Source: Acidobacteriota bacterium
GTDB lineage: Bacteria > Acidobacteriota > Vicinamibacteria > Vicinamibacterales > UBA2999
Assembly (NCBI GenBank): GCA_016192845.1
Contig: JACPTI010000077.1
Location: forward strand, 14,080 to 78,079
Direction of reading: 5' to 3'
Length of the DNA: 64,000 nt
The notes under the pieces: model-generated
What the model was told of the DNA's origin: nothing
What the model saw: the letters and a program-made list of their open reading frames with translations, nothing else
The model's database searches: none
Position numbers and translations under genes: made by a program
Part shown: positions 28,351 to 60,607 of the stretch, one piece after another
Position numbering within the stretch: position 1 is the first letter of the stretch
Layout of the letters: the number at the start of each line of letters is the position of its first letter

Positions 28351-29418
28351 TCATGGATCCGGGAGCCCCTCGATGTCCTCGACCCCGAGGACCTGGTCGG
28401 CCTCCACGGCGCGTGTGAGGCGGCGGCCGATCACCTTCTCCAGGCGCTCGGGCGCCAGACCGGTGCCCGGCTTCTTGATCGCGAGATGCTCCCGGGCGAG
28501 GCGCGTGCCCGCGGGAAGCGCCGTACGTGCGACGAGGCTTCGCGTGAAGATCCGCCGCAGCGGGACCCTCTCCCGCGCGGCGGCATCCTTGTCGACCGGA
28601 TTGGCGCGCATCCGCTCGATGAAGCGGACGCCGTCGACCAGCTGCCGCAGCTCCGCGGTGGTGACCGACGCGACGACATCGGGTCCGAACATCTCACGCG
28701 AGAGCGCCACGTGCACCTCCAGCAGATCGATGCCGATCGCCGCCGCCGCCAGCCCCGCGTAGATCGTCGCCGAATGGTCCGACAACCCGACCCAGCAGCC
28801 GTACCGCTCGCGGTAGTGCGGGATGAGGTTCAAGCCGACCTGCTCCGGCGGGCAGGGGTACGCCGTGGTGCACTGCAGCACGCCGAGGGGAACGCCGCGC
28901 GACTTCACCCGCGCCACCGCCGCATCGATCTCCGCCAGCGGACTCATACCGGTCGACAGGACGACCGGGATGCCCGTCCGCAGCACCCGCTCGAGGAGCT
29001 GGGCGTTCGAGGTCTCGCCGGACGCGATCTTCCAGAAGGGCTGCCCGATGCGCTCCAGCATGTCGACGGCTTCGACCGAGAACGGCGTCGAGACGAACAG
29101 CACGCTCCGCTCCCGGCAGTGGGTCGCGAGACCGCGCCACTGCTCCTCGGTGAACTCCGTCCGCTTCCAGTACTCGTACCGCGAGCGGTCCTGGCGGCTG
29201 AACGCGACCCGGAACGGCTCCGACGGCGTGCTCTCGGCGGCGGCGATGTGCGTCTGAAACTTCACCGCGTCGGCGCCGGCGTCCGCAATGGCGTCGATGA
29301 AGGCGTGGGCCAGGCCGAGGCTCCCGTCGTGCGTCAGCGCCACCTCGCCCATGACGAGGCAGCGGCCGTCCCCGAGCTGGGCGAGGGCCGGATGGTCCGT
29401 CGTCCTCGAATGGGTCAT
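28351..29418 (-). CDS. neuB: N-acetylneuraminate synthase family (NeuB), copy 2, KFQTH type, with SAF domain
   Basis: GEVALTHDG, AVKFQTH, STPFS, KIASGE, STGMS, CTTAYP, GLSDHS, KKPGTG. Confidence 0.92.
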   Translation of the reverse strand: MTHSRTTDHPALAQLGDGRCLVMGEVALTHDGSLGLAHAFIDAIADAGADAVKFQTHIAAAESTPSEPFRVAFSRQDRSRYEYWKRTEFTEEQWRGLATHCRERSVLFVSTPFSVEAVDMLERIGQPFWKIASGETSNAQLLERVLRTGIPVVLSTGMSPLAEIDAAVARVKSRGVPLGVLQCTTAYPCPPEQVGLNLIPHYRERYGCWVGLSDHSATIYAGLAAAAIGIDLLEVHVALSREMFGPDVVASVTTAELRQLVDGVRFIERMRANPVDKDAAARERVPLRRIFTRSLVARTALPAGTRLAREHLAIKKPGTGLAPERLEKVIGRRLTRAVEADQVLGVEDIEGLPDP

Positions 29419-30959
29419 CAGACGTCAGTGGGCTGGTGCGAGCGGGCGGCCGCCGCCAGGCGCGCCTGCCGCGCAGGATCGAGCTCGCGCGGCGTTCGCG
29501 TCAGCCGTGTGCCGAGGAGCAGCGAGCCGCCGCGGGCGGCCGCGCCGAGCATGACGCGGAGCCAGGTCCGCCTGCCGGCGGCCGCGGGGGCGACCACGCA
29601 GGTCCCCAGCGCCTCGACCGCCTCGATGAAGACCGGCGCGGCCGGGCTGTCGAGACCCCGCGGCCGGACGAACGCTTCCAGAAAGGGCCGGTACGGGTGG
29701 ACCTCCGCTGGACGCCGGCGAAGCGCCGCCCCCAGTTGAGCGAGGTGCTCCTGTGCGGTGTCGGCCACCCGGACGATGCCGCCGCCGACCTGCAGCAGAT
29801 AGCGGAAGTGAGCCGTGCCCATCTGATTGTCGTGGAAGCGCGGTACCAGTACGGTCAGCACATCGCGGCCGACGATTGCCGCTTCGAGAAACGCGCTCGT
29901 ATTCAAGCCGACGACCGCCGCGCTGTGGTACAGCGAGTCGAAATAGTCGGCACGGGAAGGCTCGTCGACCGCGTTGCCTCCCCACACCGCCACCGGCCCG
30001 AACGCGGACAGGTCCACGCCGCACCACGCAGCCGCGCCTGAGGGATACGGCCGGATCAGCACGCTCGCTCCGGCCACCACCGGATCGGCGCAGCCGCGCA
30101 GCCAGCCGAGCCACTCCCGGACGAAATCAATCTCGGGGAGGCTGCCTTTGATCAGGCCGGTACAGACGTACAGCACGATCGGCCGGTCCACGGGGAGACC
30201 GAGCTGGGCGCACAGATCGTCACGACCGCGCGTGGGCCGACGGCTGAACCAGTGATCGAAGCACTGTGCGCCGGTCACCACGACCCGCTCCGGCGGAACG
30301 CCGTGCACCTGCACGGCCTCGCCGCGCTGGGTCTCGTTCCAGACGAACACGCGGTCCGGGTAGTCGCGCAGCAGCGCTTTGCTCGTAAGGTGATCCCAGC
30401 TCCAGACGGCGAGCCCGCAAGGAATGCTCAGTTGCCGCGCCGCGCGGACGTAATCGATTTGCTGGGACCCCAAATCCACGAGCGGCGTGATGAGCAGAAC
30501 GTCGGGAGCGTGCCCGGCCAGGTACTCGACGATCGACGCGGGCGGGGGCACGGCGGCGTCGACGGCATGCAGGCACCGGGCGTACAGCCGGCGCCAGCGA
30601 AGGCCGCCGATGAGCGGCGGGTCGGCGCACGCGGCCAGCAGCCGGGGCGTGCGGTTTCGCGCCCGGACGCGACGCAGCGGAGCGGTGTCGTAGAACGGAT
30701 CGAGGTAGCGCAGGTAGTCGAGGCCAAGCCGCAGCCGGCGCGCCGCGCCGCTCCAGGTGTCGGGGCGTCGGGGCGGCACCATGCCGGAGGTCACGTCCGG
30801 CCATCCCGCGGTGAGGGCCTTCACGGCCGCGTCGCCGCCCAGCTTGTCCTCCACCTCGACTGCGAGGTGTACCCGATGTCCCCGCTCCGCCAGCGACCGG
30901 ATCGCCGCGTCGTAGTTGCGGAAGTACGTGCAGTGGCGCGCGATGAAGAGAATCTTCAC
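29418..30959 (-). CDS. Module-A putative GT-B transferase (SWDH type)
   Basis: RNYD, DYLRY, TPLVD.GSQQ.DY, SWDHLTSK, WNETQ, TGAQCFD.W, RPYP, YFDSLYHSAAVVGLNTSA. GTG start at 30959. Confidence 0.8.
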   Translation of the reverse strand: MKILFIARHCTYFRNYDAAIRSLAERGHRVHLAVEVEDKLGGDAAVKALTAGWPDVTSGMVPPRRPDTWSGAARRLRLGLDYLRYLDPFYDTAPLRRVRARNRTPRLLAACADPPLIGGLRWRRLYARCLHAVDAAVPPPASIVEYLAGHAPDVLLITPLVDLGSQQIDYVRAARQLSIPCGLAVWSWDHLTSKALLRDYPDRVFVWNETQRGEAVQVHGVPPERVVVTGAQCFDHWFSRRPTRGRDDLCAQLGLPVDRPIVLYVCTGLIKGSLPEIDFVREWLGWLRGCADPVVAGASVLIRPYPSGAAAWCGVDLSAFGPVAVWGGNAVDEPSRADYFDSLYHSAAVVGLNTSAFLEAAIVGRDVLTVLVPRFHDNQMGTAHFRYLLQVGGGIVRVADTAQEHLAQLGAALRRRPAEVHPYRPFLEAFVRPRGLDSPAAPVFIEAVEALGTCVVAPAAAGRRTWLRVMLGAAARGGSLLLGTRLTRTPRELDPARQARLAAAARSHQPTDV

Positions 30960-32185
30960 AGCCGGGCGTCCACGCGCCCACCCGTCAGGAGGCTGCCGGC
31001 GTTTGCCGGATCGAGCGCCCGCAGGTCCGTGACGGCGAAGCGGCCGGCGTCGAGCTTGTGGTACGCGCGCATCGCGACCGCGATGTGGGCGTGCAGCCAC
31101 TGCGGGTCGACGAACATCGCCGCCGTATCGACGCCGAGCCGCGGTGCGAGCCAGGTGATGCTGCCGCACGTCCCGACGAATGCGCGCGCGCCCGCGGCAA
31201 CTTGCGTCTGCACTCCGAGATTCGTCTGCGGCGTCATCCAGGGGCGGGCGCTGATGACGTCGGCGCCGCCGAATCGGTAATCGGCGTGGTCGTCTGCGAG
31301 GAGGAGGCCCGTGTCCAGCAGCACGACCGGCAGGCGCTCAGCGAGACTCGAGACGATGCTCCTGAGCACGCCCCGGATCTGCGGCGTGTCGGGGAGCGAC
31401 TGCGCGCCGTAGAACTTCACCGCGACGTACTCCCGCGGCAGGAGTGCCGGGTCGATCATCGGGGTCGCGGCGTGCGTCGTGAACCGCGTGTGCGCGTCGA
31501 CAAACCCCATCGCCCGGTGCCCGGACCAGTACAGCGTGAACAGCCGGTACATGAGTCCGGGGTGAATGACGTCGAACTCGCGGGTCCCGAGGTGCCGGGC
31601 AACGGCCACGAGGATGTCGGCGTCGAGCGGCGACGGCTCGACATGTTTGGTCATCCCCCGCTCGGCGTTGCGCCGCGCGAACTCGGCCGGCTCGACGTGA
31701 TCCCAGATCTCCACGTAGCGGGATGCCACGCCCTGATACCAGCTGGCCACGCCGCCGCGTGAAACGGCGACCAGACGATCCTCCGGCAGCCTGAACGCGG
31801 CTTTGACCCAGTGGAGGAACGGCACCCAGTACAGCGTCTCGAATCCCACCTCCGAGATCCACGGCCCTGCGACGAGCAGGCGTCCGCGTCCGACGATCGT
31901 TTCGAGCTCTCCTTCGACGTCCCACGTGGCGCGAAAGAAGCTCCATTGCTCCTCGAGCTGACGCTTCCGCCGGAGTGCGGTGCGGACGGGGCGCCGCACG
32001 CGGCGGAACCAGCGCTTCGCGAGATTCACGACATCGTCGCGAACGCCCTCGCCGGCGCGGCGGACGGCGTGACGCGCATCCGTGATCCCTTCCTGGCCCA
32101 CCTTGACCCCCCACCGGAGGCGACCGGCGACCTGCCGCAGCCGCTTGCGCGCGAGGTTGCGCGCCGCGGTCTGCCAGCCCGTCAC
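30956..32185 (-). CDS. Uncharacterised module-B protein with an Arg-rich N-terminal extension
   Basis: GPWISEVGFETLYWVPF, SRGG..SWY, IHPG, YVAVKFY, NLGVQ, FVGTCGS. Confidence 0.78.
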   Translation of the reverse strand: MTGWQTAARNLARKRLRQVAGRLRWGVKVGQEGITDARHAVRRAGEGVRDDVVNLAKRWFRRVRRPVRTALRRKRQLEEQWSFFRATWDVEGELETIVGRGRLLVAGPWISEVGFETLYWVPFLHWVKAAFRLPEDRLVAVSRGGVASWYQGVASRYVEIWDHVEPAEFARRNAERGMTKHVEPSPLDADILVAVARHLGTREFDVIHPGLMYRLFTLYWSGHRAMGFVDAHTRFTTHAATPMIDPALLPREYVAVKFYGAQSLPDTPQIRGVLRSIVSSLAERLPVVLLDTGLLLADDHADYRFGGADVISARPWMTPQTNLGVQTQVAAGARAFVGTCGSITWLAPRLGVDTAAMFVDPQWLHAHIAVAMRAYHKLDAGRFAVTDLRALDPANAGSLLTGGRVDARL

Positions 32186-34845
32186 GTCCGGACACCCTCC
32201 AGGACCGGCGAGGCGATGCCAAAGCCCAGTCGCACGACGTCAACCGCCCGGATATCGAGCTCGACGAAGGCGCCGCACCGGAGGCCCGAGAAGACGCGCT
32301 TGGCCACCTCGAGGTGATCGAAGCGGAAGCCCGAGGCGTGGGAGTAGAACGCGATCGTGCCGGTCCCGGCGAGCGGCGCGAGATAGCAGAAGCCGCCGTA
32401 CGTGCCGACGAACGCCTGCGCGTGCCGGATGACCTGCGTCTGCACCGCCAGGTTGTCGATCGGGCGCATCAGGTGGTCGATCGTGTGGATGCGCCCCCTG
32501 AGGTCGGACGGGAAGTCGTCGTGGTCGTCGTACCGATCGGCCGTGTTGAGCAGCACCACGTCGATGTGCTGCGCCAGGTCCGCGAGAAACCTCGCCGCAA
32601 ACGCCCTGTTCGCCGCCGTCGGCGGCAGCGCGACGTTACCGTAGAACTTCGCGGCCACATAGCGCGCCGGGAGCTGCCCGCGCAGCGCGAACGGTTCCAT
32701 CGGCGGCAGCGGTGAGAAGCTGGTGAACGTCTCGACGATCGTGACCGGCGCGCGCTGAAACCAGAACTGCTCGAAGAGCCGGTACATCGTGGACGGGTGC
32801 AGGATCTCGGCCCCGCGGAGCCCCCGTGCGGCGGTCACCCGCGCGATGATCTCCCGGTCGAAGCTCGACACGTCGAGGTGCTTCATCCGGCCGGACTGCT
32901 CTGCAATCCGCTCCTCGTTCCGCCGGCGGAACTGCTCGGGCGTGTAGTACGACAGGATGTCTTCGTAGTTGGCCGTCAGGTGCGAGTACCACGGCGCGGC
33001 CCCGCCGCGCGAGATGACCACGAGCCGCTCCGGATCGAAGTTGCCGTACGTCTTGGCCCAGGCGAGAAACGGAATCCAGTAGAGGAGCTCGAAGCCGGTT
33101 TCCGAGAGCCACGGCCCGACGAGAATCGGCTTGTCGCTCCGGCCGAGCAGCGTGACGAGCTCGCGCGTCTCGAGGGCCTCGGGGACGTCCCAGACCCACG
33201 ACCGTTTGGCCGGATCGCGGTGCCGCCCGGGCTTCGGCGTCAGCGCCGACGGTGGAGACGGCGCCACCACGCCCGGGCGCTTCGACCCGAGCTGCCGGAT
33301 GGCGAACCGCTTCAGGTCCCCCAGCACGCGGCGCTTCCACACCCTGTAGTCCTTGCGGATGCGACTGCGGAGGTGCTTCCACCACAACTGCGCGGGCGTG
33401 CGCAACGCGACGAGCGCGACGGCCGGGTACAGCGGCACGCGCAGGAGGAATTCCCTCCAGCCGAGGCGCTCAGGCGCCGGCGCCGGCGCCGCCACGACCC
33501 GCTCGAGCGCATCGACGAACTGCGGCGTCGCGGCGACCTCGGCCCCGAGGGGACGCACGAACATCACGGCGAAGTCGCGTGACTGCGAGTCGATCTCCCC
33601 CTCGCCGCGCAGGGAAGCGGCGAGCAGCCGCGCGTGCTCGTCGAGCGACCGCGCGGCGCGCAGCAGGCCCGCGAGAAGGTACCGGAAGTGGAGCGTGCCT
33701 TCCTGATTTCTGGTTGAGATTTCCGGCACCAGCACGGTATGCGCCGGTCTGCCGATGACCGCGGCCTCGAGGAACGCGCTCGTGTTCAGCCCCACGACCG
33801 CGGCGCTGTAGTAGATGGAGTCGAAGTAGTCGTCTTTCGCCTCGGCGTCGACCGGATGAGCGCCCCAGAACGCCACGTTCCGGTAGCCGGTGAGGTCGAC
33901 CCCCTGCCACTCCTTCAGGCGGGCCGGGTGCGGCCGCACGAGAATCCCGATGTCCTTCAGGCGCGGGTCGTCGCTCGATCGCAGCGTTTCGATCCAGTCG
34001 AGGACGAACGAAGGCTCGTCGGCCGTGTTGTGGAAGAGCGCCGAGCAGACGTACAGCACGAACGGCCTGTCCGAAGGGAGTCCGACGCGCTCGCAAAAGA
34101 CCTCTCGGCTGCGTGACGGACGGCGCCCCCACCACTGGTCGTAGCACTGCGCGCCGGTGACGATGATTTTCTCCGCAGGCACACCGTGCATCTCGATCGC
34201 CTCGGTGCGCTGCACGTTGTTCCACACGATCACCGCGTCGGGTACGAAGCGCAGCAGCGACTTCGTCGAGAGGTGGTCCCAGCTGCAGACCGGGAGCACG
34301 GTGCGCGTGCCCAGCACCTTGGCGGCGCGCACGTGGTCGATCTGCGGCGATCCAAGGTCGACGAGCGGCGTGACGAGCACGGCATCGGGCTGATGCGCCG
34401 CAATGAACTCCTCGGTCGCCTTCATGCGCGGGAGCGCGCGCTCGAGCGCGCGGAGGAGGCGCGCCAGCCGCTGGCGGCCGCGATCGCTCCCGAAGAACGA
34501 CAGCGTGAGGAGCGCGAGCACCACACGCGGCGTCCGCTGCCGGGCGCGCGCCAGCAGGTGCGGCGTGGTCGCATAGAGCGGTTCGAGGTAGCGCAGGTAA
34601 TCGAGCCCGTGACGGATCCGCCGCGTCAGATCGAACCAGGGGCCGACATGCCGGGCCGGTGACTCGCCCATCGAGAGCTGCTCGGGATACCGCGCCACGA
34701 GCCGCTCGATCATCTGCCGGCCGCCCATCGATTCTTCGACGTCGGCGGCCATGTGCACGCGGTGGCCGCGCCGGGCGAGATCCTCGATGGCGGCCTCGAA
34801 GTTGCGCAGGTACGACCAGTGGCGGGCAAAGAACAGCAGCTTCAT
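32182..34845 (-). CDS. Module A + module B fusion (887 aa)
   Basis: N-terminal SWDHLSTK/RPHP domain. C-terminal GPWLSETGFELLYWIPF domain. Confidence 0.82.
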   Translation of the reverse strand: MKLLFFARHWSYLRNFEAAIEDLARRGHRVHMAADVEESMGGRQMIERLVARYPEQLSMGESPARHVGPWFDLTRRIRHGLDYLRYLEPLYATTPHLLARARQRTPRVVLALLTLSFFGSDRGRQRLARLLRALERALPRMKATEEFIAAHQPDAVLVTPLVDLGSPQIDHVRAAKVLGTRTVLPVCSWDHLSTKSLLRFVPDAVIVWNNVQRTEAIEMHGVPAEKIIVTGAQCYDQWWGRRPSRSREVFCERVGLPSDRPFVLYVCSALFHNTADEPSFVLDWIETLRSSDDPRLKDIGILVRPHPARLKEWQGVDLTGYRNVAFWGAHPVDAEAKDDYFDSIYYSAAVVGLNTSAFLEAAVIGRPAHTVLVPEISTRNQEGTLHFRYLLAGLLRAARSLDEHARLLAASLRGEGEIDSQSRDFAVMFVRPLGAEVAATPQFVDALERVVAAPAPAPERLGWREFLLRVPLYPAVALVALRTPAQLWWKHLRSRIRKDYRVWKRRVLGDLKRFAIRQLGSKRPGVVAPSPPSALTPKPGRHRDPAKRSWVWDVPEALETRELVTLLGRSDKPILVGPWLSETGFELLYWIPFLAWAKTYGNFDPERLVVISRGGAAPWYSHLTANYEDILSYYTPEQFRRRNEERIAEQSGRMKHLDVSSFDREIIARVTAARGLRGAEILHPSTMYRLFEQFWFQRAPVTIVETFTSFSPLPPMEPFALRGQLPARYVAAKFYGNVALPPTAANRAFAARFLADLAQHIDVVLLNTADRYDDHDDFPSDLRGRIHTIDHLMRPIDNLAVQTQVIRHAQAFVGTYGGFCYLAPLAGTGTIAFYSHASGFRFDHLEVAKRVFSGLRCGAFVELDIRAVDVVRLGFGIASPVLEGVRT

Positions 34846-45147: not shown

Positions 45148-46364
<1,217 letters not shown>

Positions 46365-46384
<20 letters not shown>

Positions 46385-49300: not shown

Positions 49301-49601
49301 CGCGGGCGCGCAGCGTCGGCGAGCGGCCGTATCGGGGATCGAGGTAGCGCCAGTAGTCGAGCGACAGCCGAAGGGCATTCCCCAGCGTCTGCCAGGGCGA
49401 CTGCCTGCGGTCGGCCGCGTACGTGTACGTCACGCGCCCCGGATAGTCGCGAACCAGGGTTTCGACGGTGCGGAAGCCGCCGACACTGTCCTTCCGCTCC
49501 GCGACGAGGTGCAGCTGGTGGCCCCGCTCCGCCAGGAGCCGCAGCGCGGGCTCGAAGTTGCGGAGGAACCCGAAACTGGCGACCGAGAACAACAGCCGCA
49601 T
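46365..49601 (-). CDS. Tandem module A + module A protein (1078 aa; SWDH then SWDN)
   Basis: Two complete repeats of the RNF/DY.RY/SWD/RPHP/NTSA/GTLHF domain. Confidence 0.83.
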
Positions 49602-52881: not shown

Positions 52882-53939
52882 GCGAGGAGCCGTCTCCAGC
52901 CGACCAGATGCGCCCAGTCCGGCGCGCGTCCCGGCTCGCCGCGCGCCGGCATCGGGTGCGGCCAATACCGCTGCTCGATCGCCCGCCATACTCGACGGGT
53001 GTCGTCGCGCGCATCGCCGCCCGGAAGTACCGAGTAGAAGTATCGCGAACCGAACTCGAAAGCGCGATGCACGTGCGCGGACACGCGCTCGTCGCTCATG
53101 TGTCGCAGCGTCAGAACGTCGACCGTCAGATCGACCCGGGGGGGACGCAGCACCGGCAGCGCGCTTTCCGGCGCGAACACAAAATCGACTCTCTCCCACT
53201 CGCGCCACACCTCATCGGGAGCCTCGGGATCGAAGAGGCGCCATCGGACCCCGGGATAAACGGTCATGAGATACACGGCGGACAGCAGGAACAGGTCGGG
53301 AACGCCGGTAATCAGATAGGTCACGTCGGGGCACAGCGTCTTGAACTGATAGGCAAAGCCACCCCAGCCGCCGCCGATTTCCCACACGATCCGTCGCCCC
53401 GTCGTCCGGCGAAATTCCGGCAGTACAGCCGCATCCTGCAGCGCGGCGAGCAGGTGGAAGTGCTTCAAGGTGTCGGCGTTGTACCGCTCGCCGGCTCTCA
53501 GGTACCCGAACCCGCCGAGCGCCTGCGGCTCCGGCACCAGCAGGTCCTGGCCCAGCTGCTTTCGCAGCACCGCCAAATCGCGCCGCAGTCGGGCGATGAG
53601 ATCGCCAGCCGGATCGTCGTAATCCACCGCCCGCACGCCGCTGATGGGCTCGCACCAGTGGCGCAGCGTCGCGATCGTCTCGGGGGCGGCATCCCAGAGA
53701 TGGGAGAGGGCGGCAATCGTCCGCCGCTCGGGCTCGGTCAGCGACGCGATCTCACCGCTCGTCTCCGACATGCGCCGGGCCCAGTCGCGTACGGCCCCGT
53801 AATGCTCGTACGCGGTGGCCGCGACCGTCTCCAGCGCGAACCGCTCCGCTTCGCGCCGCGCCACACGCACCGCACGCGCCGCGAGCCGCTCCGGAGAGGG
53901 CCCAGGCTCCACCGCCGCCATGTCCGTGGCGCCCTTCAC
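52878..53939 (-). CDS. Sugar O-methyltransferase-like protein (module C)
   Basis: PEP..LGGFG, YN.DTL, WEIGGGWGGFAYQFKTL.P. Start GTG 53939 or ATG 53921. Confidence 0.75.
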   Translation of the reverse strand: MKGATDMAAVEPGPSPERLAARAVRVARREAERFALETVAATAYEHYGAVRDWARRMSETSGEIASLTEPERRTIAALSHLWDAAPETIATLRHWCEPISGVRAVDYDDPAGDLIARLRRDLAVLRKQLGQDLLVPEPQALGGFGYLRAGERYNADTLKHFHLLAALQDAAVLPEFRRTTGRRIVWEIGGGWGGFAYQFKTLCPDVTYLITGVPDLFLLSAVYLMTVYPGVRWRLFDPEAPDEVWREWERVDFVFAPESALPVLRPPRVDLTVDVLTLRHMSDERVSAHVHRAFEFGSRYFYSVLPGGDARDDTRRVWRAIEQRYWPHPMPARGEPGRAPDWAHLVGWRRLLA

Positions 53940-54637
53940 CGTCTGACCAGCGCCACCTGCGCCGTCCGCAGATCCCATGCGGCGAACGCGTCGGTCTGCT
54001 GCATGTATTCGGAAACCGCCTTGGGCACACCCGGGCATTTCTTCGACGCGTAATCGTCGATGACGATGATGCCGCCCGGCGACATGCACGGACCGAAGTA
54101 CTCGAGGCATGCGATCGTCGGCCGATAGAGATCCGTATCGATGTGGACCAGCCGGTATACGGCAGCGGCAAGATGCGGCAGCGACGCCGCGACGTCCCCT
54201 TTGTAGATTTCCAGCTGCCGGAACGCCGACAGATACGCCTGCACGTCCTCGTATCGCGTCTTGCTGAACTTTCCCGGCGCATGGAACGGGTCGTGCTCGG
54301 TGATCGCTGCGACCGGGTGTCCCTCGAACGTGTCGAAGACCCGCATTGGCACTTCGCCGCCCGTGATCGCCACCAACGCGCTGGCGATGAAGTACGCCGA
54401 CCCGCCCTGGTACGTTCCGATCTCTGCAACCGCACCGGGCACGTCGGCGACGTTACGCACCGCCTGCCAGAGGGAATACAGGCATTCGTAGCCGAGCAGC
54501 GTCCGTTCCCGCCGCACTACGGCGTCTGCAAGCTCGAAGAACGCGGACCCTGGCTGGAACTCGAGTGCGTGCCGCGGCTTTCTATACATCGGACGGCGAA
54601 ACCACTGATCGGGATCGCGGGGACGGTCGTTTCTCAT
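53936..54637 (-). CDS. TylF/MycF-family O-methyltransferase
   Basis: GAVAEIGTYQGGS, FDTFEG, VHIDTDLY, GGIIVIDDY, CPGV..AV. Start at MRNDR. Confidence 0.9.
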   Translation of the reverse strand: MRNDRPRDPDQWFRRPMYRKPRHALEFQPGSAFFELADAVVRRERTLLGYECLYSLWQAVRNVADVPGAVAEIGTYQGGSAYFIASALVAITGGEVPMRVFDTFEGHPVAAITEHDPFHAPGKFSKTRYEDVQAYLSAFRQLEIYKGDVAASLPHLAAAVYRLVHIDTDLYRPTIACLEYFGPCMSPGGIIVIDDYASKKCPGVPKAVSEYMQQTDAFAAWDLRTAQVALVRR

Positions 54638-55602
54638 GCGACTTCTTCGGGCCTCCGTGTGACCCGCGGCTGTGTAGCAGCATCGGATCGCGGCTGCGAG
54701 AACCATTTCGCAACCTTCATCCGCCAATCGGATTTCGGGCGTACGATGTCGCGGACGATCGACCACCACAGCTGAATCGCTGCGTACCGAACGCCCGACA
54801 ATCGGCCGAACGCGGGCTTTCCCCTTCCGCGCACGGCGAAGTCCCACAGCAGCGTGGCGGAGTGCTGTACATGGACCGGCAGGTTGGCATGAACAGGTAC
54901 CCCGTCCGGAAAGAAGGCTTTTAGCTGCCGGCGCCGGTCGAACTTCTGCAGGAACTCGCGGTACCAGAGCACTTCCGGCACCTGGCGGAACTGGCCGAAC
55001 AGCGACAGGGCCAGCAGTACCTGCCGATCGGGCAGAATCACGCGGTGGAACACGCCGGCCGCTTCCAGCGCCTTGGTGCGCATGAGGCCGTAGATCATGT
55101 CGCCCGACCGCATGTATCGCGCCGCCTGCCGCATCCGCTCTGCGCGGCTGGTAACGCCGAACGTCTCGAATAGCTTGACCTTCTCGGTCGTCCGGGCGCC
55201 TTCGGCGGTCAACTGCACGTTGTGCGGATACGCGAGCACCACTTCGGGATGCGCGTCGAGCACCGCCACCATCTCCTGCAGCCACCGGGCGTGCCAGACG
55301 TCGTGGTCACTCACCCACGCAAAGTATTCGCTCGCGGGATACAACTCCCGTGCGCGTGCGAACACCCGCCGCCAGTTGCCGACCATGCCCAGGCGGCGGC
55401 TGTTCGCCTCGTAGCTGATGCGCGGGAACTGACGGGCATACGCCTCGATAATCGATGCCGTCTCCCTCGAGGCCGCATCATCGATCGCAACCAGCGCGAA
55501 ATCCTGGCACGTCTGCGACAGCAGCGACTCGAGGGTCCGGGGCAGCGCATCCGGTCTGCCGTACGCCGGAAGCCCCAGCACGACTCTGGGCAAACCGTTC
55601 AC
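54634..55602 (-). CDS. GT2 glycosyltransferase (module D)
   Basis: PRVVLGLPAYG, IDD, LGMVGNW, EYFAWVSDHD.WH.RWL, YGLMR, PDR. GTG start at 55602. Confidence 0.88.
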   Translation of the reverse strand: MNGLPRVVLGLPAYGRPDALPRTLESLLSQTCQDFALVAIDDAASRETASIIEAYARQFPRISYEANSRRLGMVGNWRRVFARARELYPASEYFAWVSDHDVWHARWLQEMVAVLDAHPEVVLAYPHNVQLTAEGARTTEKVKLFETFGVTSRAERMRQAARYMRSGDMIYGLMRTKALEAAGVFHRVILPDRQVLLALSLFGQFRQVPEVLWYREFLQKFDRRRQLKAFFPDGVPVHANLPVHVQHSATLLWDFAVRGRGKPAFGRLSGVRYAAIQLWWSIVRDIVRPKSDWRMKVAKWFSQPRSDAATQPRVTRRPEEVA

Positions 55603-58139
55603 ACCAGAAGGCGTTTCCACCCGAGGAAGTAGGTCCGTTGAACCGGCCCCTCGCCAATCGTCAACGAGAGCCGCCGGGCCAGCGATTCCGGGGCACAGAC
55701 GGGATGAAGCCAGTACAGACGCTCGAGGTCGGGCCGTACCGGCGACGCGAGATCGCCGTCCGGATTTCCAGAGGGACAGACGGACGCGATATACCGGCAG
55801 CCGAGATCGAACGCGCGCCTCACGTGCATCTCGAGTCGCGACGGATGCATTCGTTCGAGCGCCATCAGGTCGATCGTCAGATCCAGTGACGGCGGCTCCA
55901 TCCGAGCGACGATGCTCTCGGGCGCGAAGCCGAAGTCGGTGGCGTCCCACTCGCTCCAGAACGCACGCGGATTCTGCGGATCGTAGAACCGAAACCGGGC
56001 GTCCGGAAACAGCGTCATCAGATACACGGCCGCCGGCAGCAGCACCTCGGGGCGTGCCGTCATCAGGTACGTCACGTTCGGACACAGCGTCTTGAAGTGG
56101 TGGGCGAATCCGCCGGACCCGCCAATCTCCCAGACGGTGCGCCTCGGCGCCGCGCCGCGAAATTCCCTGATCAGGGAGGCGTCCTGCAGCAGCGAGACCA
56201 CCCTGAAGCACCGCAGCGTCTCCTCGTTGTAGCGCCTGCCGCCGCTCTCGAACCCGAAGGCGCCGAGTGCGGCGGGCTCGTCCACCCAGAGCGCGCTGTC
56301 GCCGCGGACGAGCAGCCGGCGCAGGTCACGCTCGAAGCGAGCCCTGACCGGGCGGGGCGCGTCGTCGTAGTCGGCGGCGCGGACGCCGCTGGTCGCCGCG
56401 GTATACCGTCGCAGCTCTGCGATCGTCTCCGGCGCCGCGTCCCATAATGGCGCGAGGGCGGCCAGCAGGCGCCGCTCGGCGGGCGTCGAACCGTTGGCTC
56501 CGGCCTCCGCGTCGCGCAACGGCCGCAGCCGCTCGCGCGCACGGAGATAGGCGTCGAAGGCACGCGCCCTGCACTCGGCGACAAAGGCGGCCTGCCGCTC
56601 GAGCGCCAGCCGCCGCGCGGCGCGCTCCTGCTGATCGCGCTGCTTGGCCGCCTTCCGCGCTTCCAGCGCGTGGTTGGCGCCCTGCCGCGCCTCTTGCATC
56701 GCCGACGCCATGCTGGCCAGCGCCGGCCTGGCCGCGAGGCGCCACCATGGGCCGCGACTGGGCCGCCGGGCGCCGGCGGCGGCCGTCGCCTCGATGGCGA
56801 CAACCAGTTTCGGCGTCGCCGCCACGTCCATCCCGTACGGTCGAACGAACGCTTCCACGAAGCGCCAGCACCTGTCGGCCGCCGCGTCAGGATTGCGCAG
56901 CGCCGTCTCGAGCTGTGACACATGCTCGCTGATTCCGGAGGCGACGTGGAGCAAGCCACCGTTCACCTCCCGCAGGTATCGAAAATGGAGCGTGCCGTCC
57001 TGCGTATCGCGGAATTCCGGGGCGAGCAGCGTGTAGACGCCGCGACCGACGATGGCGCTCTCGATGAGCGCGCTGGTGTTGATGCCGACGACGGCCGCGC
57101 TGTGATGAATGGAATCGTAATAATCGGCGCGCGTGTCCTCGTCAATCGGATTGCCGCCGTCTCGCGGCCAGATCACGACGTTGCCAAAATCGCTGACATC
57201 CGCCGTGGCCCAGCGTTCCGCGTTCTGCGGGTGGGGCCGCACGAGGACTCCGGCGCCGCGCAATGCTGCGGCGGCCGAGCGGACCTCCTGGACCCATCGC
57301 CGGACGAACGGCAGTTCGTTCCCCGCAATGAACCTCGACGAACAGAGATACAGCAGATAGGGATGCCGCGGGTCGAGGCCGACCCGGGCACAGAAAGCCT
57401 CGCGCGAGGCGCGCGGCGTCCAGGTGAACCAGTGGTCGTACGGCGCCGCGCCGGTCACGACCACGCGCTCGGCGGGGACGCGATGGAGCGCGACCGCCTC
57501 GGCCTTCATCGCCTGGTTCCATACCGTGACGAGGTCGAGCGGGTCGTGAATGAGCCCCTTGTTCGTGAGGTTGTCCCAGCTGTACACGCACAGGCCGGTG
57601 CGGATGCCGAGCGCGCGGGCGCTGCGCAGGTAGTCCGACTGCGGCGACCCGGGCTCCACCAGCGGCGTGACGAGCACGAGATCCGGACGGTGATCATGAA
57701 TGAACGCGGAGATCGCCGGATCCGGCGGCAACGCCCGATCGCACGTGCGCAGGAACCGTCCGAGCAGCCAGCGGCCCCGGCGGGTGAGGACGAGGCGCCG
57801 CCATGCTGCCGAGGCGGCGAACACCGGCGCCTTCTGCTCGGCGCGCCACCGCAGCTTGGAAGCGTCCCGGTACTCCGGCCGGAAGTAACGCAGGTAATCG
57901 ATCCCCTTTCGCAGCTCGACGCCGAGCTGCGACCAGGTCGGTGCCGACGGTCCCGGCGGCAGCCCGTGGGTGATCTCCGGATGCTCGCGGCAGAGGCGCC
58001 CGATGAGGTCCCCAGGATCAAGGTACTGGTGCACTTCCGCGGCGACGTGCACGCGGTGCCCGCGTCCGGCGAGCAGGCGCAGCGTCGATTCGAAATTCCG
58101 CACGTACACCGTGCTGCGCATGAAGAAGAGGATCTTCAT
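55599..58139 (-). CDS. Module A + helical linker + degenerate module C fusion (846 aa)
   Basis: SWDNLTNKG/RPHP domain, A/R/E/Q-rich linker, then WEIGGSGGFAHHFKTLCP. Start at MKILF. Confidence 0.82.
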   Translation of the reverse strand: MKILFFMRSTVYVRNFESTLRLLAGRGHRVHVAAEVHQYLDPGDLIGRLCREHPEITHGLPPGPSAPTWSQLGVELRKGIDYLRYFRPEYRDASKLRWRAEQKAPVFAASAAWRRLVLTRRGRWLLGRFLRTCDRALPPDPAISAFIHDHRPDLVLVTPLVEPGSPQSDYLRSARALGIRTGLCVYSWDNLTNKGLIHDPLDLVTVWNQAMKAEAVALHRVPAERVVVTGAAPYDHWFTWTPRASREAFCARVGLDPRHPYLLYLCSSRFIAGNELPFVRRWVQEVRSAAAALRGAGVLVRPHPQNAERWATADVSDFGNVVIWPRDGGNPIDEDTRADYYDSIHHSAAVVGINTSALIESAIVGRGVYTLLAPEFRDTQDGTLHFRYLREVNGGLLHVASGISEHVSQLETALRNPDAAADRCWRFVEAFVRPYGMDVAATPKLVVAIEATAAAGARRPSRGPWWRLAARPALASMASAMQEARQGANHALEARKAAKQRDQQERAARRLALERQAAFVAECRARAFDAYLRARERLRPLRDAEAGANGSTPAERRLLAALAPLWDAAPETIAELRRYTAATSGVRAADYDDAPRPVRARFERDLRRLLVRGDSALWVDEPAALGAFGFESGGRRYNEETLRCFRVVSLLQDASLIREFRGAAPRRTVWEIGGSGGFAHHFKTLCPNVTYLMTARPEVLLPAAVYLMTLFPDARFRFYDPQNPRAFWSEWDATDFGFAPESIVARMEPPSLDLTIDLMALERMHPSRLEMHVRRAFDLGCRYIASVCPSGNPDGDLASPVRPDLERLYWLHPVCAPESLARRLSLTIGEGPVQRTYFLGWKRLLV

Positions 58140-60607
58140 GGCGCCGCCTTGCCGCCGCCGCTGCGCGTGAACACGCCGTACCAGACGGCGTACTCGCCGG
58201 CTTTCGTCTTCAGAACGATCTTCGAGTCGAGCCGCAGTCCGTGGCACTCGAGGACGTCGGTCACCGCGCCCGATTGCGCGGTGGAGACCTCCACGAGAAT
58301 CGACTGCAGCGCGGGCGACGACAGCGTGCGCGGGGCGCCCTCGAGCACCGCCAGCTCTCCGCCGTCGACGTCGAGCTTGATGTGATTCGGCAGCGGCAGG
58401 CGGACCCATTCGACCAGGTCGTCCAGGCGGAATCTCATCACCGGCTGCTGATAGAGCGTCGGGCCGTCCTCGGGCTGGCCGGGGCCGAGCACGTGTCGCG
58501 CGGCGCCGGGCTCGAGGTCGCGCAGGCTGAACACGTCCATCGCCGTCGTGTCGGCGAGCGCCACCGGCATCGGCGTAATCAGCGCGCCCACGCCGTTAAG
58601 CACGATGTTGGTGCAGAGCGACGCCACGCTCGCGTAGCTCGCCTCAAACGAGAAGACGCGGGCCGCGCCGCCCGGCTTCTTGGCGGCCACCAGCGAGTAA
58701 ATGCCGACGTTGGCGCCGATGTCGTACAGCACCTCGCCCGCCCCGATACGCGTGTGAATCCAGTCGACGGTGAACGGCTCCTTCTTGCAGGCCCGCAGGC
58801 GGAATTCTTCGCCCTTCGTCAGGACCTGGATGTAGATGTCCGCCTCCTCGTAGGCAACCCTCCGCGGCCGGCTCGCCGCGTGCATGTCGACGAACGAGCT
58901 CCGGGGAATCTGGTGCATGACCGCCCGCAGTAGCTCGCGGCGCTTGATCGAGCCAAGGGCCGCAAAGTCGGCCGCGAGCGCCTGGACCGGATCGCGTCTC
59001 GTCGCCAGCGCCTCCGCGCGCCGCGCCCGCCGCTCCTCTTCCTTGCGGGCCTGCGCCGCCAGGCGTTCGGCCACCCGCGCGCGGCGCCGCGCCTCGCGCG
59101 CGGCCTTCTCCGCCTCGCGGGCCGCCCTCGCCTCCTGCGCCGCGCGCGCCTCGCGTTCGAGCTCCCCGGCCCGCCGCGACAGCCGCGGCCGGATGAGCGG
59201 CGCCCAGATCGGCGCTCCGCTGCCAGCGCGTGCGGGCTCGGCCGCTAGCGCTTCGAGTGCTTCGACCAGGCGCGGCGTGGCGGGCACATCGACGCCGTAC
59301 GGCCGCACGAATGCCTCGACGAACCGTCGGCACTGGACGTCTTCGGCGTCGGGCTCCCGCACGGCCGCATCCAGGTGGGCGAGGTGCTCGTCGAAATCGC
59401 GCGCGACGCGCACGAGGCCCCCGTTGACGCTCCGCAGGTGACGAAAGTGCAGCGTCCCCTCCTGCGTGTCGCGGAACTCGGGCGCGAGCAGCGTGAAGAC
59501 GCGGCGCCCGAGGATGGCGCTCTCGATCTCGGCCGTCGTGTTGACGCCGACGACCCCTGCGCTGTGGTACATGGAATCGAAATAGTCGCTGCGCGAGTCG
59601 GCGTCGACCGGGGCCGCGCCCGCAGGCGGCCACACCACCACGCCGCCGAAGCTGCTCAGGTCGGCGTTCTGCCATTGCTCCGCGTGCTGCGGATGGGGGC
59701 GCACGAGGATCCCTGCGGCGCGAAGCGCCTGGAACGGTGCGCAGCGGACCTGCTGCGCCCACTTCTGGACGAACGCAGCCTCGTCGGGGGCGACGAACTT
59801 CGACGAACACACGTAGAGGAGATACGGACGGTCGGACGGCAGCCCGATGTGCGAGCAGAACGCCTCGCGCGCCCTGCTGGGACGCCACTCGAACCAGTGG
59901 TCGAAGGCCGCCGCGCCCGTGACCACGACACGATCGGCGGGGATGCCATGGAGCTCGACCGCCTCGCGCTTCATCGCCTCGTTCCAGACGGCGACGAGGT
60001 CGACCGGCCCGTGGATGAGGCCCTTGTTGGTCAGGTTGTCCCAGCTGGCGACGCAGTGCGCCGAGCGGACGCCGAGCGCGTGCGCGCTCCGGACGAAATC
60101 GGCCTGCGGGGAACCAGGTTCGATCAGTGGAGTGACGGCCATCACATCGGGACGGTGCTCGGCGATGAAGGCATCGATCGCCGGATCGCGCGGAATGGCG
60201 CGATCCATCACACGCAGCCACGCCCCCAGCGCCCGGCGGCCCACCGGCGCACTCGCGAACCCGTACTCGGCCCTCGCGAGAATCGCCGGCGAGACCTCGC
60301 GTGCGGCGCGATCCCGCAGCTTCGACGCGTCACGGTACTCCGGTCTCAGGTACCGCAGGTAATCGAGACTGAGGCGCAGTTCGCGCCCAAGCAGCCCCCA
60401 CCCGTCCGTGCGCACCGGAGCCTCGCCGTACGAGAAGTTGGCGTAGCGGTCGGCGAACCGTTGCGGCGTGTCGACCGGATCCAGCAGCGTGTTCTTGTCC
60501 TTCTGAAACGCGACGTGGACGCGATGCCCGCGATCGCACAGCATCCGCAGGGTCGATTCGAAATTGCGAACGTACCCGGAATGCCGCATGACGAAGAGAG
60601 CTTTCAT
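58136..60607 (-). CDS. Module A + coiled coil + FkbM methyltransferase fusion (823 aa)
   Basis: SWDNLTNKG/RPHP domain, ELEREARAAQEARAAREAEKAAREARRR..EEERRARR linker, YDIGANVG, FEA, IKLDVDGGE. Confidence 0.85.
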   Translation of the reverse strand: MKALFVMRHSGYVRNFESTLRMLCDRGHRVHVAFQKDKNTLLDPVDTPQRFADRYANFSYGEAPVRTDGWGLLGRELRLSLDYLRYLRPEYRDASKLRDRAAREVSPAILARAEYGFASAPVGRRALGAWLRVMDRAIPRDPAIDAFIAEHRPDVMAVTPLIEPGSPQADFVRSAHALGVRSAHCVASWDNLTNKGLIHGPVDLVAVWNEAMKREAVELHGIPADRVVVTGAAAFDHWFEWRPSRAREAFCSHIGLPSDRPYLLYVCSSKFVAPDEAAFVQKWAQQVRCAPFQALRAAGILVRPHPQHAEQWQNADLSSFGGVVVWPPAGAAPVDADSRSDYFDSMYHSAGVVGVNTTAEIESAILGRRVFTLLAPEFRDTQEGTLHFRHLRSVNGGLVRVARDFDEHLAHLDAAVREPDAEDVQCRRFVEAFVRPYGVDVPATPRLVEALEALAAEPARAGSGAPIWAPLIRPRLSRRAGELEREARAAQEARAAREAEKAAREARRRARVAERLAAQARKEEERRARRAEALATRRDPVQALAADFAALGSIKRRELLRAVMHQIPRSSFVDMHAASRPRRVAYEEADIYIQVLTKGEEFRLRACKKEPFTVDWIHTRIGAGEVLYDIGANVGIYSLVAAKKPGGAARVFSFEASYASVASLCTNIVLNGVGALITPMPVALADTTAMDVFSLRDLEPGAARHVLGPGQPEDGPTLYQQPVMRFRLDDLVEWVRLPLPNHIKLDVDGGELAVLEGAPRTLSSPALQSILVEVSTAQSGAVTDVLECHGLRLDSKIVLKTKAGEYAVWYGVFTRSGGGKAAP

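Follow-up and report, generated by a model that had tools for sequence, protein, structure and literature searches.

Nine paralogous GT-B modules in an acidobacterial surface-glycan cluster, a candidate nonulosonate transferase branch of the TagF/TagB superfamily

What does a glycosyltransferase-like domain transfer when one gene cluster carries nine copies of it? The question is raised by a 64,000-nucleotide stretch of an acidobacterial contig, hereafter the window, in which an initial annotation had noted a repeated, uncharacterized domain, module A, and had read it as a set of CMP-ulosonate or CDP-polyol transferases. The host is a soil acidobacterium, and the array sits in a large surface-sugar gene cluster. 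Coordinates are those of the window; genes written with two dots, and all module A copies, lie on the minus strand.

Nine copies of module A in eight genes

Alignment and a genome profile search confirm the nine copies of module A, which are spread over eight genes on the minus strand from 29418 to 60607. Copies 1–5 occupy 59204-60607, 56742-58139, 50570-51940, 48201-49601, and 46689-48086, and copies 6–9 occupy 42077-43456, 35252-36742, 33454-34845, and 29565-30959. In the MAFFT alignment of the nine (A1, 513 columns), 65 columns are invariant, and copies 2–9 are 60, 40, 47, 41, 39, 47, 46, and 46% identical to the first. The nine-copy profile recovers each copy from the window's genome, on a single contig, with E values of 1e-200 to 1e-224, and the repeat is therefore far beyond chance. 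The repeat domain is real, but the size first given for it, ~480 aa, was wrong; the copies measure 457–497 aa (median about 466). The motifs listed for it fared unevenly under strict matching. SWD[NH]L[TS].K and RP[HY]P are found in 9/9 copies, the latter as eight RPHP and, in 29418..30959 only, one RPYP. Six others hold in 4–8 of the nine: TGA..[FY]D.W in 8/9, RN[FY] and WN..Q in 7/9, DY.RY and GTLHF in 6/9, and the long DS...NTSA motif in 4/9. TPL..S.Q.DY has the wrong spacing and is found in 0/9; the alignment has TPL....S.Q.D.

The architectures described initially are borne out. Module A stands alone in 29418..30959 (A at 29565-30959, the RPYP copy), in 34898..36745, which has an insertion of ~30 aa within module A and a basic or amphipathic tail, and in 41741..43456, which has a basic C-terminal tail. 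It is doubled in 46365..49601 (48201-49601 and 46689-48086) and fused to a second module, B, in 32182..34845 (A at 33454-34845, B at 32185-33213) and in 49601..51940 (A at 50570-51940, B at 49604-50533). In 55599..58139, a linker joins it to a NanM-like sugar O-methyltransferase, as placed by the A1 alignment and TIGR04371 (22.5 bits, sub-threshold), that is paralogous to the gene at 52878 and the N-terminus of the gene at 37674. In 58136..60607, a charged Ala/Arg/Glu-rich linker leads to an FkbM methyltransferase (PF05050 43 bits, TIGR01444 69 bits).

Four maximal open reading frames are over-extended, and start codons and 4-nt overlaps place the real starts at 30959, 36745, 43456, and 58139. 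The 513-aa gene call at 29418..30959 equals P0151 at 100% identity and coverage. The gene 34898..36745 starts with GTG at 36745, its longer reading having the wrong codon GC pattern, and a separate 309-aa gene occupies 36742-37671. The genes 41741..43456 and 55599..58139 start with ATG at 43456 and 58139, each overlapping the upstream stop by 4 nt, while 58136..60607 starts with ATG 30 nt from the upstream FkbM gene. We infer that the module A genes are co-transcribed because they share one strand, 4-nt start/stop overlaps occur at nine junctions, and terminator-like sites, all within coding sequence, show no excess over shuffles (12 vs 7.9 ± 2.8).

Fold and family placement of module A

The AlphaFold2 model of module A from 58136..60607 is confident (pLDDT 84, pTM 0.86), and its whole-length matches to GT-B structures support the predicted GT-B fold. 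These include NeuC (Z 22.5, rmsd 4.3 over 338 aligned residues, Foldseek E 1.7e-11), WaaA (Z 19.3), TarL (Z 19.0), TagF (Z 16.1), and polysialyltransferase (Z 14.8). The fold search places module A no nearer to GT38/52/80/99/107, the families first proposed for comparison, than to other GT-B enzymes. UDP-GlcNAc 2-epimerases and GT4/GT28 enzymes outrank the CMP/CDP-dependent enzymes, and GT99 and GT107 chains are absent from the 50 structural matches listed.

The top rank of the epimerases raises the question of whether module A is a transferase at all; it could act as an epimerase or hydrolase of the NeuC/WecB kind, or it could have lost catalysis and serve as a scaffold for the assembly complex. 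Weak PF02350 matches in 3/10 distant homologues (E 0.005–0.17) and the loss of the HP histidine in one copy would fit such a role. We regard it as highly improbable. A genuine NeuC-type hydrolyzing UDP-GlcNAc 2-epimerase is already encoded at 45194..46384 (TIGR03568 383 bits, above the cut-off of 235.9), and the invariant columns among the nine copies, together with the 14 that persist in the wider family, argue for catalysis. Fusion partners such as the GT9-like and methyltransferase domains are characteristic of enzymes that build glycans, and sequence homology leads to TagF/BFO_1060, not to epimerases.

The Pfam scan agrees that module A has no Pfam family. PF04464 does not match any of the nine copies even at E 10, and the same holds for PF05159, PF00534, and PF13692. 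Profile searches of solved structures found no relative, and all homologues among the 120 matches listed are unnamed or 'hypothetical'. Module A is nevertheless tied to described families: it is distantly related to PF04464 (TagF) and NF046086 (BFO_1060), below both cut-offs. All nine copies match NF046086 partially, at 16–53 bits, where the cut-off is 200 (the genome scan gave a best E of 1.8e-8, and 46365..49601 the best per-protein match, E 3.7e-14, 52.6 bits), over an N-domain part of the model, positions about 42–187 of 365. Ten distant homologues match the A1 profile at E 1e-27 to 1e-40; three of the ten pass the Pfam cut-off for PF04464, and 8/9 of those scanned, with L082:7688-9169 left out, match NF046086 at 33–65 bits. 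When a module A alignment (A4) was compared by hhalign with five true TagF-like proteins, their C-domains aligned over 203 columns (probability 94.7%, E 5.7e-8), with RPHP falling on K-x-H-P; hhalign detected no N-domain similarity. The atlas neighbors of module A are clusters with PF04464 in 12–20% of members. These comparisons make module A a new branch within the TagF/TagB superfamily, to which the Tannerella BFO_1060 transferases of pseudaminic and legionaminic acid (Pse/Leg) also belong. The HP motif had been taken as the mark of a cytidine-nucleotide donor domain. Its alignment with K-x-H-P supports this, but the histidine is not invariant, and Y, A, S, N, and L are also found at this position across the wider family.

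Nonulosonate genes and the likely donor

The window encodes two NeuB-type nonulosonate synthases, at 28351..29418 (PF03102 222 bits; TIGR03569 305 bits vs 212 for PseI, both below cut-off) and at 17800..18933 (PF03102 258 bits; TIGR03569 290 bits). One NeuA/PseF-type cytidylyltransferase is fused to a class I methyltransferase in 43453..45183 (PF02348 76.9 bits, PF13489; TIGR03584 142.7 bits, below cut-off), and a second is encoded at 14573..15409 (TIGR03584 126 bits; PF02348 71 bits). DegT and dehydratase genes are also present in the window.

The expected co-occurrence is found across genomes. Among 201 Acidobacteriota genomes, NeuB is present in 16/16 with module A or A-like genes and in 48/185 others, a count that overstates the signal because related genomes are not independent. 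The 16 genomes span 8 taxonomic families, and 11 of them carry NeuB on the contig of the A or A-like genes, no more than about 45 kb away. The eight that carry just one or two A-like genes have NeuB and lack module B. A simple cluster (L078) contains NeuB, a NeuC-like epimerase, a PF02348 cytidylyltransferase, and Wzt; its two A-like genes are its only TagF-type transferases. In the genome G016, A-like genes lie directly beside neuA/neuC/neuB, and on a plasmid of Rhizobium sp. WL3 a full-length A-like gene (E 2e-41) directly follows neuA-like and neuC genes, with a NeuB-family gene nearby. Of 76 related loci, 18 have NeuB no more than 10 kb to either side, among them records from Thermoleophilaceae, Chloroflexota, and Nitrospinota; NeuB was not found in 2/5 module A genomes from other phyla (1.9 and 2.5 Mb, completeness not given). 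The association with CMP-nonulosonate genes is strong in the window, the survey, and the Rhizobium plasmid, and this genomic context favors CMP-nonulosonate donors for module A.

Shared residence in nonulosonate-containing clusters could alone produce this linkage if module A were an ordinary Leloir GT-B enzyme (GT4/GT28-like) using UDP-, GDP-, or dTDP-sugars. PF13439 (Glyco_transf_4) does match 7/9 copies below threshold (best E 9e-4), many GT4, GT28, and GT1 structures match the model at Z 17–21, and the window encodes a UDP-glucose dehydrogenase and RmlB/RmlD-like enzymes. This is distinctly unlikely, as the TagF family, and not GT4, is what the C-terminal donor domain aligns to, the unbroken NeuB count extends over eight families, and L078 has GT4 and GT2 genes besides its A-like pair to account for the NDP-sugar steps.

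Module B and a further activated donor

The initial annotation did not include three stand-alone module B copies, a nucleotidyltransferase, and a KpsC/KpsS-like gene, all of which bear on who transfers what. Module B has five copies in all, two fused to A and three stand-alone. The gene 30956..32185 encodes a GT9-like GT-B glycosyltransferase (AF2 pLDDT 91.2), with structural matches (VIA) to WaaF (1psw, Z 14.7), 3tov (Z 14.5), and WaaC (Z 13.2). The gene 26596..28014 (B region 26599-27489) matches the other B copies at phmmer E 1e-52 to 1e-70, and 21756..22844 matches 30956-32185 at phmmer E 3e-83 (PF01075 Glyco_transf_9 E 0.041, below threshold).

The gene 24989..25531 encodes a small HxGH nucleotidyltransferase, RfaE-domain-II/TagD-like, which is the probable maker of a further nucleotide-activated donor. 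It scores 65.8 bits on TIGR02199 (RfaE-II) and 34.7 bits on TIGR01518 (TagD), both below cut-off, and matches ECT (E 1.2e-9) and TagD (E 1.1e-7) in the PDB. It is kept in 16/76 related loci, of which 16/16 have module B, and is found in 0/7 B-free distant loci (L077-L083). The only other B-free hit is in L089, a separate TagF-like locus, and is weak (E 6.5e-6, 28% identity). The enzyme tracks module B, not module A. The protein encoded by 10101..11858 is KpsC/KpsS-like (PF05159 19.2 bits vs a cut-off of 20; PDB KpsC E 0.08) and is a candidate second ulosonic-acid transferase; among its 120 listed homologues, two have PF05159 and one bears the name 'capsule biosynthesis protein'.

With these genes at hand, module A could consist of TagF-like phosphotransferases that build a teichoic-acid-like polymer from CDP-activated polyol or alcohol-phosphate, while the KpsC/KpsS-like protein or module B attaches the nonulosonates. 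PF04464 is the only above-threshold family link of the distant homologues, and the C-domain alignment and the TarL and TagF structural matches point the same way. We consider this unlikely. The nucleotidyltransferase scores higher as RfaE-II than as TagD, is confined to module B loci (the weak L089 match apart), and is missing from B-free A-like/NeuB loci. No IspD/TarI-type gene was found on the window's contig. The true TagF-like genes of one genome (G071) adjoin an ORF read by eye as IspD/TarI-like. A-like genes, moreover, stand directly beside neuA/neuC/neuB in Rhizobium and G016. Some A copies could still use a CDP-linked donor, because array clusters retain a nucleotidyltransferase of the TagD family.

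Paralogue history and other genes of the cluster

A tree was built from 35 A domains of four genomes, and none of the window copies in it has another window copy as its sister. The sister genome G120 has a 1:1 partner for eight of the nine (100/100 support), and the copy of 29418..30959 has no G120 orthologue and a long branch. By this tree, the window's set consists of old paralogues, in keeping with distinct roles for them. Related genomes differ from one another in fusion partners and gene order, which upholds the proposed domain shuffling.

Further genes encode a fused NanM-like methyltransferase and GT2 (37674..39833; TIGR04371 79.5 bits, above cut-off; PF00535), two GT2 glycosyltransferases (51937..52881 and 54634..55602; PF00535 86 and 73 bits), a NanM-like (52878 to about 53924) and a TylF-like methyltransferase (53936 to about 54634) within 52878..55285, with uncertain starts, and a stand-alone FkbM methyltransferase (60638..61462; PF05050). 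A polysaccharide deacetylase and formyltransferase (39830..41598; PF01522, PF00551) likely serves N-acyl remodeling of the nonulosonate. The ABC exporter noted initially is present at 61770..63921, as an ABC-2 permease (61770-62648; PF01061) and a Wzt/TagH-like ATPase (62632-63921; PF00005). The ATPase has a C-terminal extension of ~180 aa and gives no Wzt_C match; NF050108 and NF010066 are sub-threshold in the exporter region.

Proposed function and comparison with known systems

We favor, with moderate confidence, the reading that module A is a new GT-B family of the TagF/TagB/BFO_1060 superfamily, that its donors are most likely CMP-nonulosonates, and that the nine paralogues build an exported methylated glycan. 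Module A would transfer legionaminic- or neuraminic-type residues from CMP donors at the cytoplasmic membrane face, and the nine copies would have distinct roles, probably differing in acceptor, linkage, or nonulosonate variant. This donor, this location, the nature of the product, and the roles of D190 (SWD), R303, H305, and H387 are what we infer. Partners would be the five GT9-like B modules, probably fed by the RfaE-II-like nucleotidyltransferase, three GT2 enzymes, and at least eight methyltransferase domains, and the A-B fusions may be two-sugar polymerase units. The product would be a nonulosonate-rich methylated glycan exported by the Wzm/Wzt ABC transporter. To our knowledge, this would be the first cluster to combine nine nonulosonate transferases, and module A would add a large new family to a poorly known enzyme class.

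The E. coli K1-type group 2 capsule locus carries neuABC, a polysialyltransferase, kpsS/C, and kpsMT. The window likewise has NeuB/NeuC/NeuA, a KpsC/KpsS-like gene, an ABC-2 exporter, and HP-motif GT-B enzymes in one region, but it adds a WecA-like initiator and many methyltransferases, and the polysialyltransferase (GT38) ranks no higher than mid-list among the structural matches to module A. The meningococcal W/Y capsule polymerases combine a hexosyltransferase with a sialyltransferase. KpsC has two GT107 modules and WbbB has GT99 plus polymerase modules, according to PMC12887879. The window shares with these systems ABC-2 export and tandem or fused transferase modules with one linkage each, including an ulosonic-acid module fused to a second transferase (here A-B, A-A, if module A acts as proposed). 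The module families differ, however, as seen in the missing PF05159 match, and nine A and five B modules per cluster far exceed these systems.

With TagF/TarL/TagB (PF04464), module A shares the GT-B fold, a homologous C-domain with the HP histidine aligned, and the presence of several copies per cluster with an ABC exporter of the TagGH/Wzm-Wzt type; it differs in lacking a PF04464 match and detectable N-domain similarity, and its neighbors make CMP-nonulosonates rather than CDP-polyols. The Tannerella enzymes Tanf_01245 and TFUB4_00887, of which BFO_1060 is listed as a homologue in PMC5420450, are GT-B proteins related to TagB, about 445 aa long, with CMP-nonulosonate neighbors and an HP motif, as in module A; according to the same paper, their deletion strips the Tannerella O-glycan of its Pse or Leg residue. 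Each is a lone gene whose product caps a protein O-glycan, whereas module A forms an array in an ABC-transporter cluster and reaches NF046086 below its cut-off and over part of the model only. D/E-D/E-G is the motif named for the Tannerella BFO_1060 family.

Organization of the array

The window has a G+C content of ~70%, and nearly all of its genes lie on the minus strand. Module A is present in nine copies across eight genes (29418–60607). The copies are 457–497 aa long, share 39–60% identity with the first copy, and have 65 invariant alignment columns. The domain combinations proposed in the initial annotation are all present: module A stands alone in three genes, is doubled in one, is joined to module B in two, and is fused to a NanM-like O-methyltransferase and to FkbM in one gene each. 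Motif counts across the nine copies showed that one of the motifs it had listed was mis-spaced. The maximal open reading frames (ORFs) were too long in four cases; once their starts are corrected, neighbouring genes touch or share 4 nt at nine junctions. This packing would fit a single long operon. Scanning the window for terminators and promoters was uninformative, the terminator signals being no better than in shuffled sequence.

The linkers on the 3′ side of module A in 58136–60607 and 55599–58139 are long, charged, Ala/Arg/Glu-rich and coiled-coil-like in appearance, and separate module A from the methyltransferase domains. They resemble the regions that serve as spacer or ruler in WbdD and WbbB. 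The stand-alone copies of module A have basic or amphipathic C-terminal tails, which may act as membrane anchors. A 309-aa gene (36742–37671, minus strand, third-position GC 0.87) is concealed beneath the over-extended ORF 34898–37402; it has no match in Pfam at E 5.

Fold and size of the module A family

The AlphaFold model of the first copy (pLDDT 84, pTM 0.86) has a complete GT-B fold, which bears out the GT-B-like assignment made earlier from sequence. The top structural matches are UDP-GlcNAc 2-epimerases (Z 22.5), and we regard non-transferase roles for module A as highly improbable; many GT-B transferases come next, among the matches being WaaA (Z 19.3), TarL (Z 19.0), TagF (Z 16.1), and a polysialyltransferase (Z 14.8). 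Foldseek and VIA-align confirm the GT-B fold without separating the CMP/CDP-dependent families from other GT-B enzymes; the fold by itself does not identify a donor. The polysialyltransferase, GT38 structure 5wc6, ranks below many unrelated GT-B enzymes, and chains of GT99, GT107, and GT118 are absent among the best 50 fold matches listed.

Module A does not belong to any Pfam family, and its eight genes gave only sub-threshold GT4/MGDG matches. When the nine domains were scanned at E 10, no donor-specific family was matched and Glyco_transf_4 appeared below threshold only. The possibility that module A comprises ordinary NDP-sugar transferases would find its place here, among the GT4-like matches and the many GT-B transferases of similar fold; we consider it unlikely in view of the nonulosonate gene context described below. 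At the same E-value, there was no match to the Pfam families of the GT38, GT52, and GT80 sialyltransferases or to PF05159 (KpsC/KpsS/WbbB-type; GT107, GT118, GT99). The profiles of the nine window copies and of the 19-sequence alignment gave only chance-level matches to the sequences of solved structures (E ≥ 0.1).

The family is large. A search with the nine-copy profile returned 7,372 representative clusters (50% identity) at E ≤ 1e-3 and 2,177 at E ≤ 1e-30, and some of the matching proteins carry two to four copies. The 120 best homologues of one copy are nameless or annotated as ‘hypothetical protein’. Organism labels are given for three of them (Acidobacteria, Acidimicrobiia, and Vicinamibacterales), none of which has a precomputed Pfam domain. 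The residues invariant in the wider family (numbered as in the 58136 copy) are R14, R78, S188-W189-D190, V207-W208, G231, D236, R247, G255, R303, H387, and G397. In the freely accessible literature, nothing was found that links nonulosonic acid glycosyltransferases to Acidobacteria, the papers listed for nonulosonates and Vicinamibacter do not mention that genus, and those on teichulosonic acid and legionaminic homopolymers held nothing on the module A family; no account of module A or its arrays was found there.

Relation to the TagF/TagB and BFO_1060 families

All nine copies of module A give a partial, sub-threshold match to NF046086 (‘BFO_1060 family glycosyltransferase’). The best score is 52.6 bits (model positions 42–170 of 365), short of the curated cut-off of 200 bits, and in the genome scan the nine copies score 16–35 bits. 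PMC5420450 lists BFO_1060 as a homologue of Tannerella forsythia Tanf_01245 and TFUB4_00887, whose deletion leaves the O-glycan without its terminal derivative of pseudaminic or legionaminic acid. The same paper describes these two proteins as TagB-like with an HP motif and names HP and D/E-D/E-G as the motifs of the family. In module A, the HP motif is found in eight of the nine window copies, one having RPYP instead, and its histidine varies in more distant members; among acidic residues, D190 of the SWD motif is the invariant candidate. Like the BFO_1060 family, module A is encoded beside CMP-nonulosonate biosynthesis genes.

PF04464 (Glyphos_transf, gathering cut-off 22.1 bits) is matched by none of the nine copies, even at E 10. 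Ten distant homologues from other Acidobacteriota genomes match the module A profile with E-values of 1e-27 to 1e-40, and three of these pass the PF04464 cut-off (31, 31, and 29.6 bits). The NF046086 scan covered nine of the ten, all except L082:7688–9169; eight of the nine matched with 33–65 bits, and seven of those eight also match TIGR04396. These homologues bridge module A and the TagF/TagB superfamily. The connection can also be seen when the 19-sequence alignment of module A is compared by hhalign with five TagF-like proteins, which themselves score 59–210 bits on PF04464. The probability is 94.7% (E 5.7e-8) over 203 columns of the C-terminal domain, with the RPHP of module A placed on the K-x-H-P of the TagF family and NTSA..E on D-x-SS. 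In the protein atlas, the clusters neighbouring module A have PF04464 on 12–20% of their members, a lead only. These sequence comparisons tie module A to the TagF/TagB superfamily. Since it falls below both curated cut-offs, it is treated as a new family within that superfamily.

The ORFs of two loci outside the ten distant homologues were scanned with them. At the first, a TagF-like ORF of 582 aa flanked by two NeuB genes (locus L091, G023:C2, 1261–3006) has in its C-terminal half the highest NF046086 score found here (88 bits) and matches PF04464 too; locus L089 gave nothing with NF046086.

Nonulosonate genes and the donor of module A

The window encodes two NeuB-type synthases, one NeuC-type hydrolysing epimerase, and two NeuA/PseF-type cytidylyltransferases. 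A DegT aminotransferase, a dehydratase, a formyltransferase, a deacetylase, a Wzm/Wzt exporter, three GT2 enzymes, and many methyltransferases are also present.

The association of module A with nonulosonate genes, which had been suggested as a check, holds across genomes. In a sample of 201 Acidobacteriota genomes, module A or a distant A-like gene is found in 16 genomes from eight taxonomic families, and NeuB in 64 (one of these, G049, is unpublished). NeuB is present in 16/16 of the genomes with A or A-like genes vs 48/185 of the others, a strong count but not a clean statistic, given that related genomes do not count as independent. For 11 of the 16, NeuB shares a contig with the A or A-like genes, within ~45 kb. 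Eight of the genomes carry no more than one or two A-like genes and lack module B, yet have NeuB. The gene order at one such simpler locus (L078) is NeuB, NeuC-like epimerase, methyltransferase, PF02348 cytidylyltransferase, AsnB-like amidotransferase, Wzt with Wzt_C, GT4, two A-like genes, GT2, two GT4, and O-antigen ligase.

Beyond the phylum, a tblastn search of plasmids gave one weak match, on the Rhizobium sp. WL3 plasmid NZ_CP042825.1 (locus L102). The gene there (WP_147885260.1) encodes a ‘hypothetical protein’ that is A-like over its full length (E 2e-41) and contains SWD and RCHP. It immediately follows neuC and a gene for acylneuraminate cytidylyltransferase, with a NeuB-family gene nearby. 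Of 76 related loci in public genomes, 18 have NeuB within ±10 kb, and these include records from three other phyla. On the other hand, NeuB was not seen in two of the five genomes from other phyla carrying module A, both small and of completeness not given; its absence there counts against a CMP-nonulosonate donor.

On balance, module A is probably a new branch of the TagF/BFO_1060 superfamily at the rank of a family, made up of CMP-nonulosonate transferases, for which we infer the donor, the mechanism, and the product. The nine modules of the array would work together with the GT9-like modules, the GT2 enzymes, and the methyltransferases, and the product would be an ABC-exported, methylated glycan rich in nonulosonates. 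[quoted passage not shown] If the assignment is true, module A would be a very large source of nonulosonate transferases, with its 7,372 representative clusters, and the nine diverged paralogues of one operon would provide chemoenzymatic synthesis with a ready-made set of linkage specificities. Rhizobium sp. WL3 is a cultured organism suited to testing the idea.

Four adjoining ‘hypothetical proteins’ of 449–513 aa are encoded upstream of the NeuB-family gene on the Rhizobium plasmid (NZ_CP042825.1, 478–6327). Three are interrelated at 23–24% identity and one weakly matches the 19-sequence profile (E 2.5e-11); the superfamily may thus have a still more remote branch here. In the window, the genes beside the second NeuB (11914–17803, minus strand) encode a HAD hydrolase, a transketolase-like three-domain protein, the second cytidylyltransferase, an aldehyde dehydrogenase, and a short-chain dehydrogenase, and may form a side-chain or N-acyl tailoring route for a second nonulosonate. 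Between this NeuB and a copy of module B are two minus-strand genes of 308 and 573 aa (18888–19814 and 20054–21775), with no match in Pfam (E 5), NCBIfam, or PDB sequences. A MAG with the label Bifidobacteriaceae also has module A homologues, at 76% and 55% identity, on short contigs (L001 and L019); this looks like a binning error rather than the true host.

Module B and the small nucleotidyltransferase

Module B is more frequent than the two fused copies recognized in the initial annotation. Five copies are counted, three of which stand alone (21756–22844, 26596–28014, and 30956–32185) and two of which form the C-termini of 32182–34845 and 49601–51940. The model of module B is very confident (pLDDT 91), and its closest folds are WaaF 1psw (Z 14.7, rmsd 3.6, 235 aligned residues), 3tov (Z 14.5), WaaC (Z 13.2), and TibC (Z 12.0). 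These matches stand clear of the next GT-B entries (Z ≤ 11), and the fold of module B is of the GT9, heptosyltransferase-like GT-B type. Module B does not belong to a Pfam family. PF01075 (cut-off 22 bits) was not matched at E 0.001, and at E 5 it was matched by one of three scanned copies, with 13.6 bits (E 0.041). In the 201-genome sample, module B is confined to exactly the eight genomes with module A arrays, and in related loci it is often fused 3′ of module A.

A small HxGH nucleotidyltransferase (24989–25531, minus strand) belongs to the TagD family, which keeps alive the alternative that module A consists of CDP-alcohol phosphotransferases. Its PDB relatives are ethanolamine-phosphate and glycerol-3-phosphate cytidylyltransferases. 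It is, however, more RfaE-domain-II-like than TagD-like, with 65.8 bits on the RfaE-domain-II model (heptose-1-phosphate adenylyltransferase) vs 34.7 bits on TagD. The arrays of three related genomes retain the gene at 55–92% identity, and among array clusters with module B its conservation is high across phyla. Homologues occur at 16 of the 76 loci, every one of which has module B, and are absent from the seven distant loci lacking module B (L077–L083). The only other match at a locus without module B is weak (E 6.5e-6, 28% identity) and lies at L089, a separate TagF-like locus. Given this co-occurrence, the small nucleotidyltransferase is paired with module B. That this TagD-like gene supplies module A is less likely, given its company with module B and its better fit to the RfaE-II model. 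An IspD-type gene was not found on the contig of the window. We judge the CDP-alcohol alternative to be rather unlikely, if slightly less so than NDP-sugar transfer.

History of the copies and the proposed assembly line

The cluster is syntenic with that of a genome of the same genus (G120). Two further genera have it in rearranged form, each with nine to ten A modules. A maximum-likelihood tree built from 35 A domains places no two window copies as sisters, which rules out a recent tandem duplication. Eight of the nine pair one-to-one with G120 at 100/100 support, and several groups take in the two further genera as well; the RPYP copy, on a long branch, lacks a counterpart in G120. By this tree, the paralogues are old and individually conserved, which argues for nine separate roles over redundancy.

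A broader reading is possible, and we hold it only tentatively. Module A would be a nonulosonate-transferase family new at the CAZy level, widespread in uncultured soil and water bacteria, and its arrays of nine to ten, conserved in Vicinamibacterales, would be an assembly line for an unprecedented glycan. The A and GT9-like modules would act in order, with one linkage per module. The product would be long, defined, and heavily methylated, with nonulosonate and heptose-like sugars, and unlike described capsules or O-antigens. If the module A enzymes are nonulosonate transferases, common soil Acidobacteria would devote ~45 kb of their genome to a nonulosonate-rich surface polymer, which would bear on soil aggregation, on recognition by phages and predators, and on the prevalence of nonulosonic acids in environmental biomass, for which there is no explanation so far.

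Other genes of the locus

A KpsC/KpsS-like protein of 585 aa (10101–11858, minus strand) scores 19.2 bits on PF05159 (cut-off 20) and is conserved at ~80% identity across many Vicinamibacterales records. It adjoins a WecA-like initiator gene fused to a CoA_binding_3 domain (8300–10138). The pair hints at a lipid linker like that of group 2 capsules, and the KpsC/KpsS-like protein is a further candidate ulosonate transferase. The Wzt-like ATPase (62632–63921, minus strand) has a C-terminal extension of ~180 aa. Unlike the Wzt of the simpler locus L078, it has no match to Wzt_C (PF14524), and the extension may be a new glycan-end-binding module.
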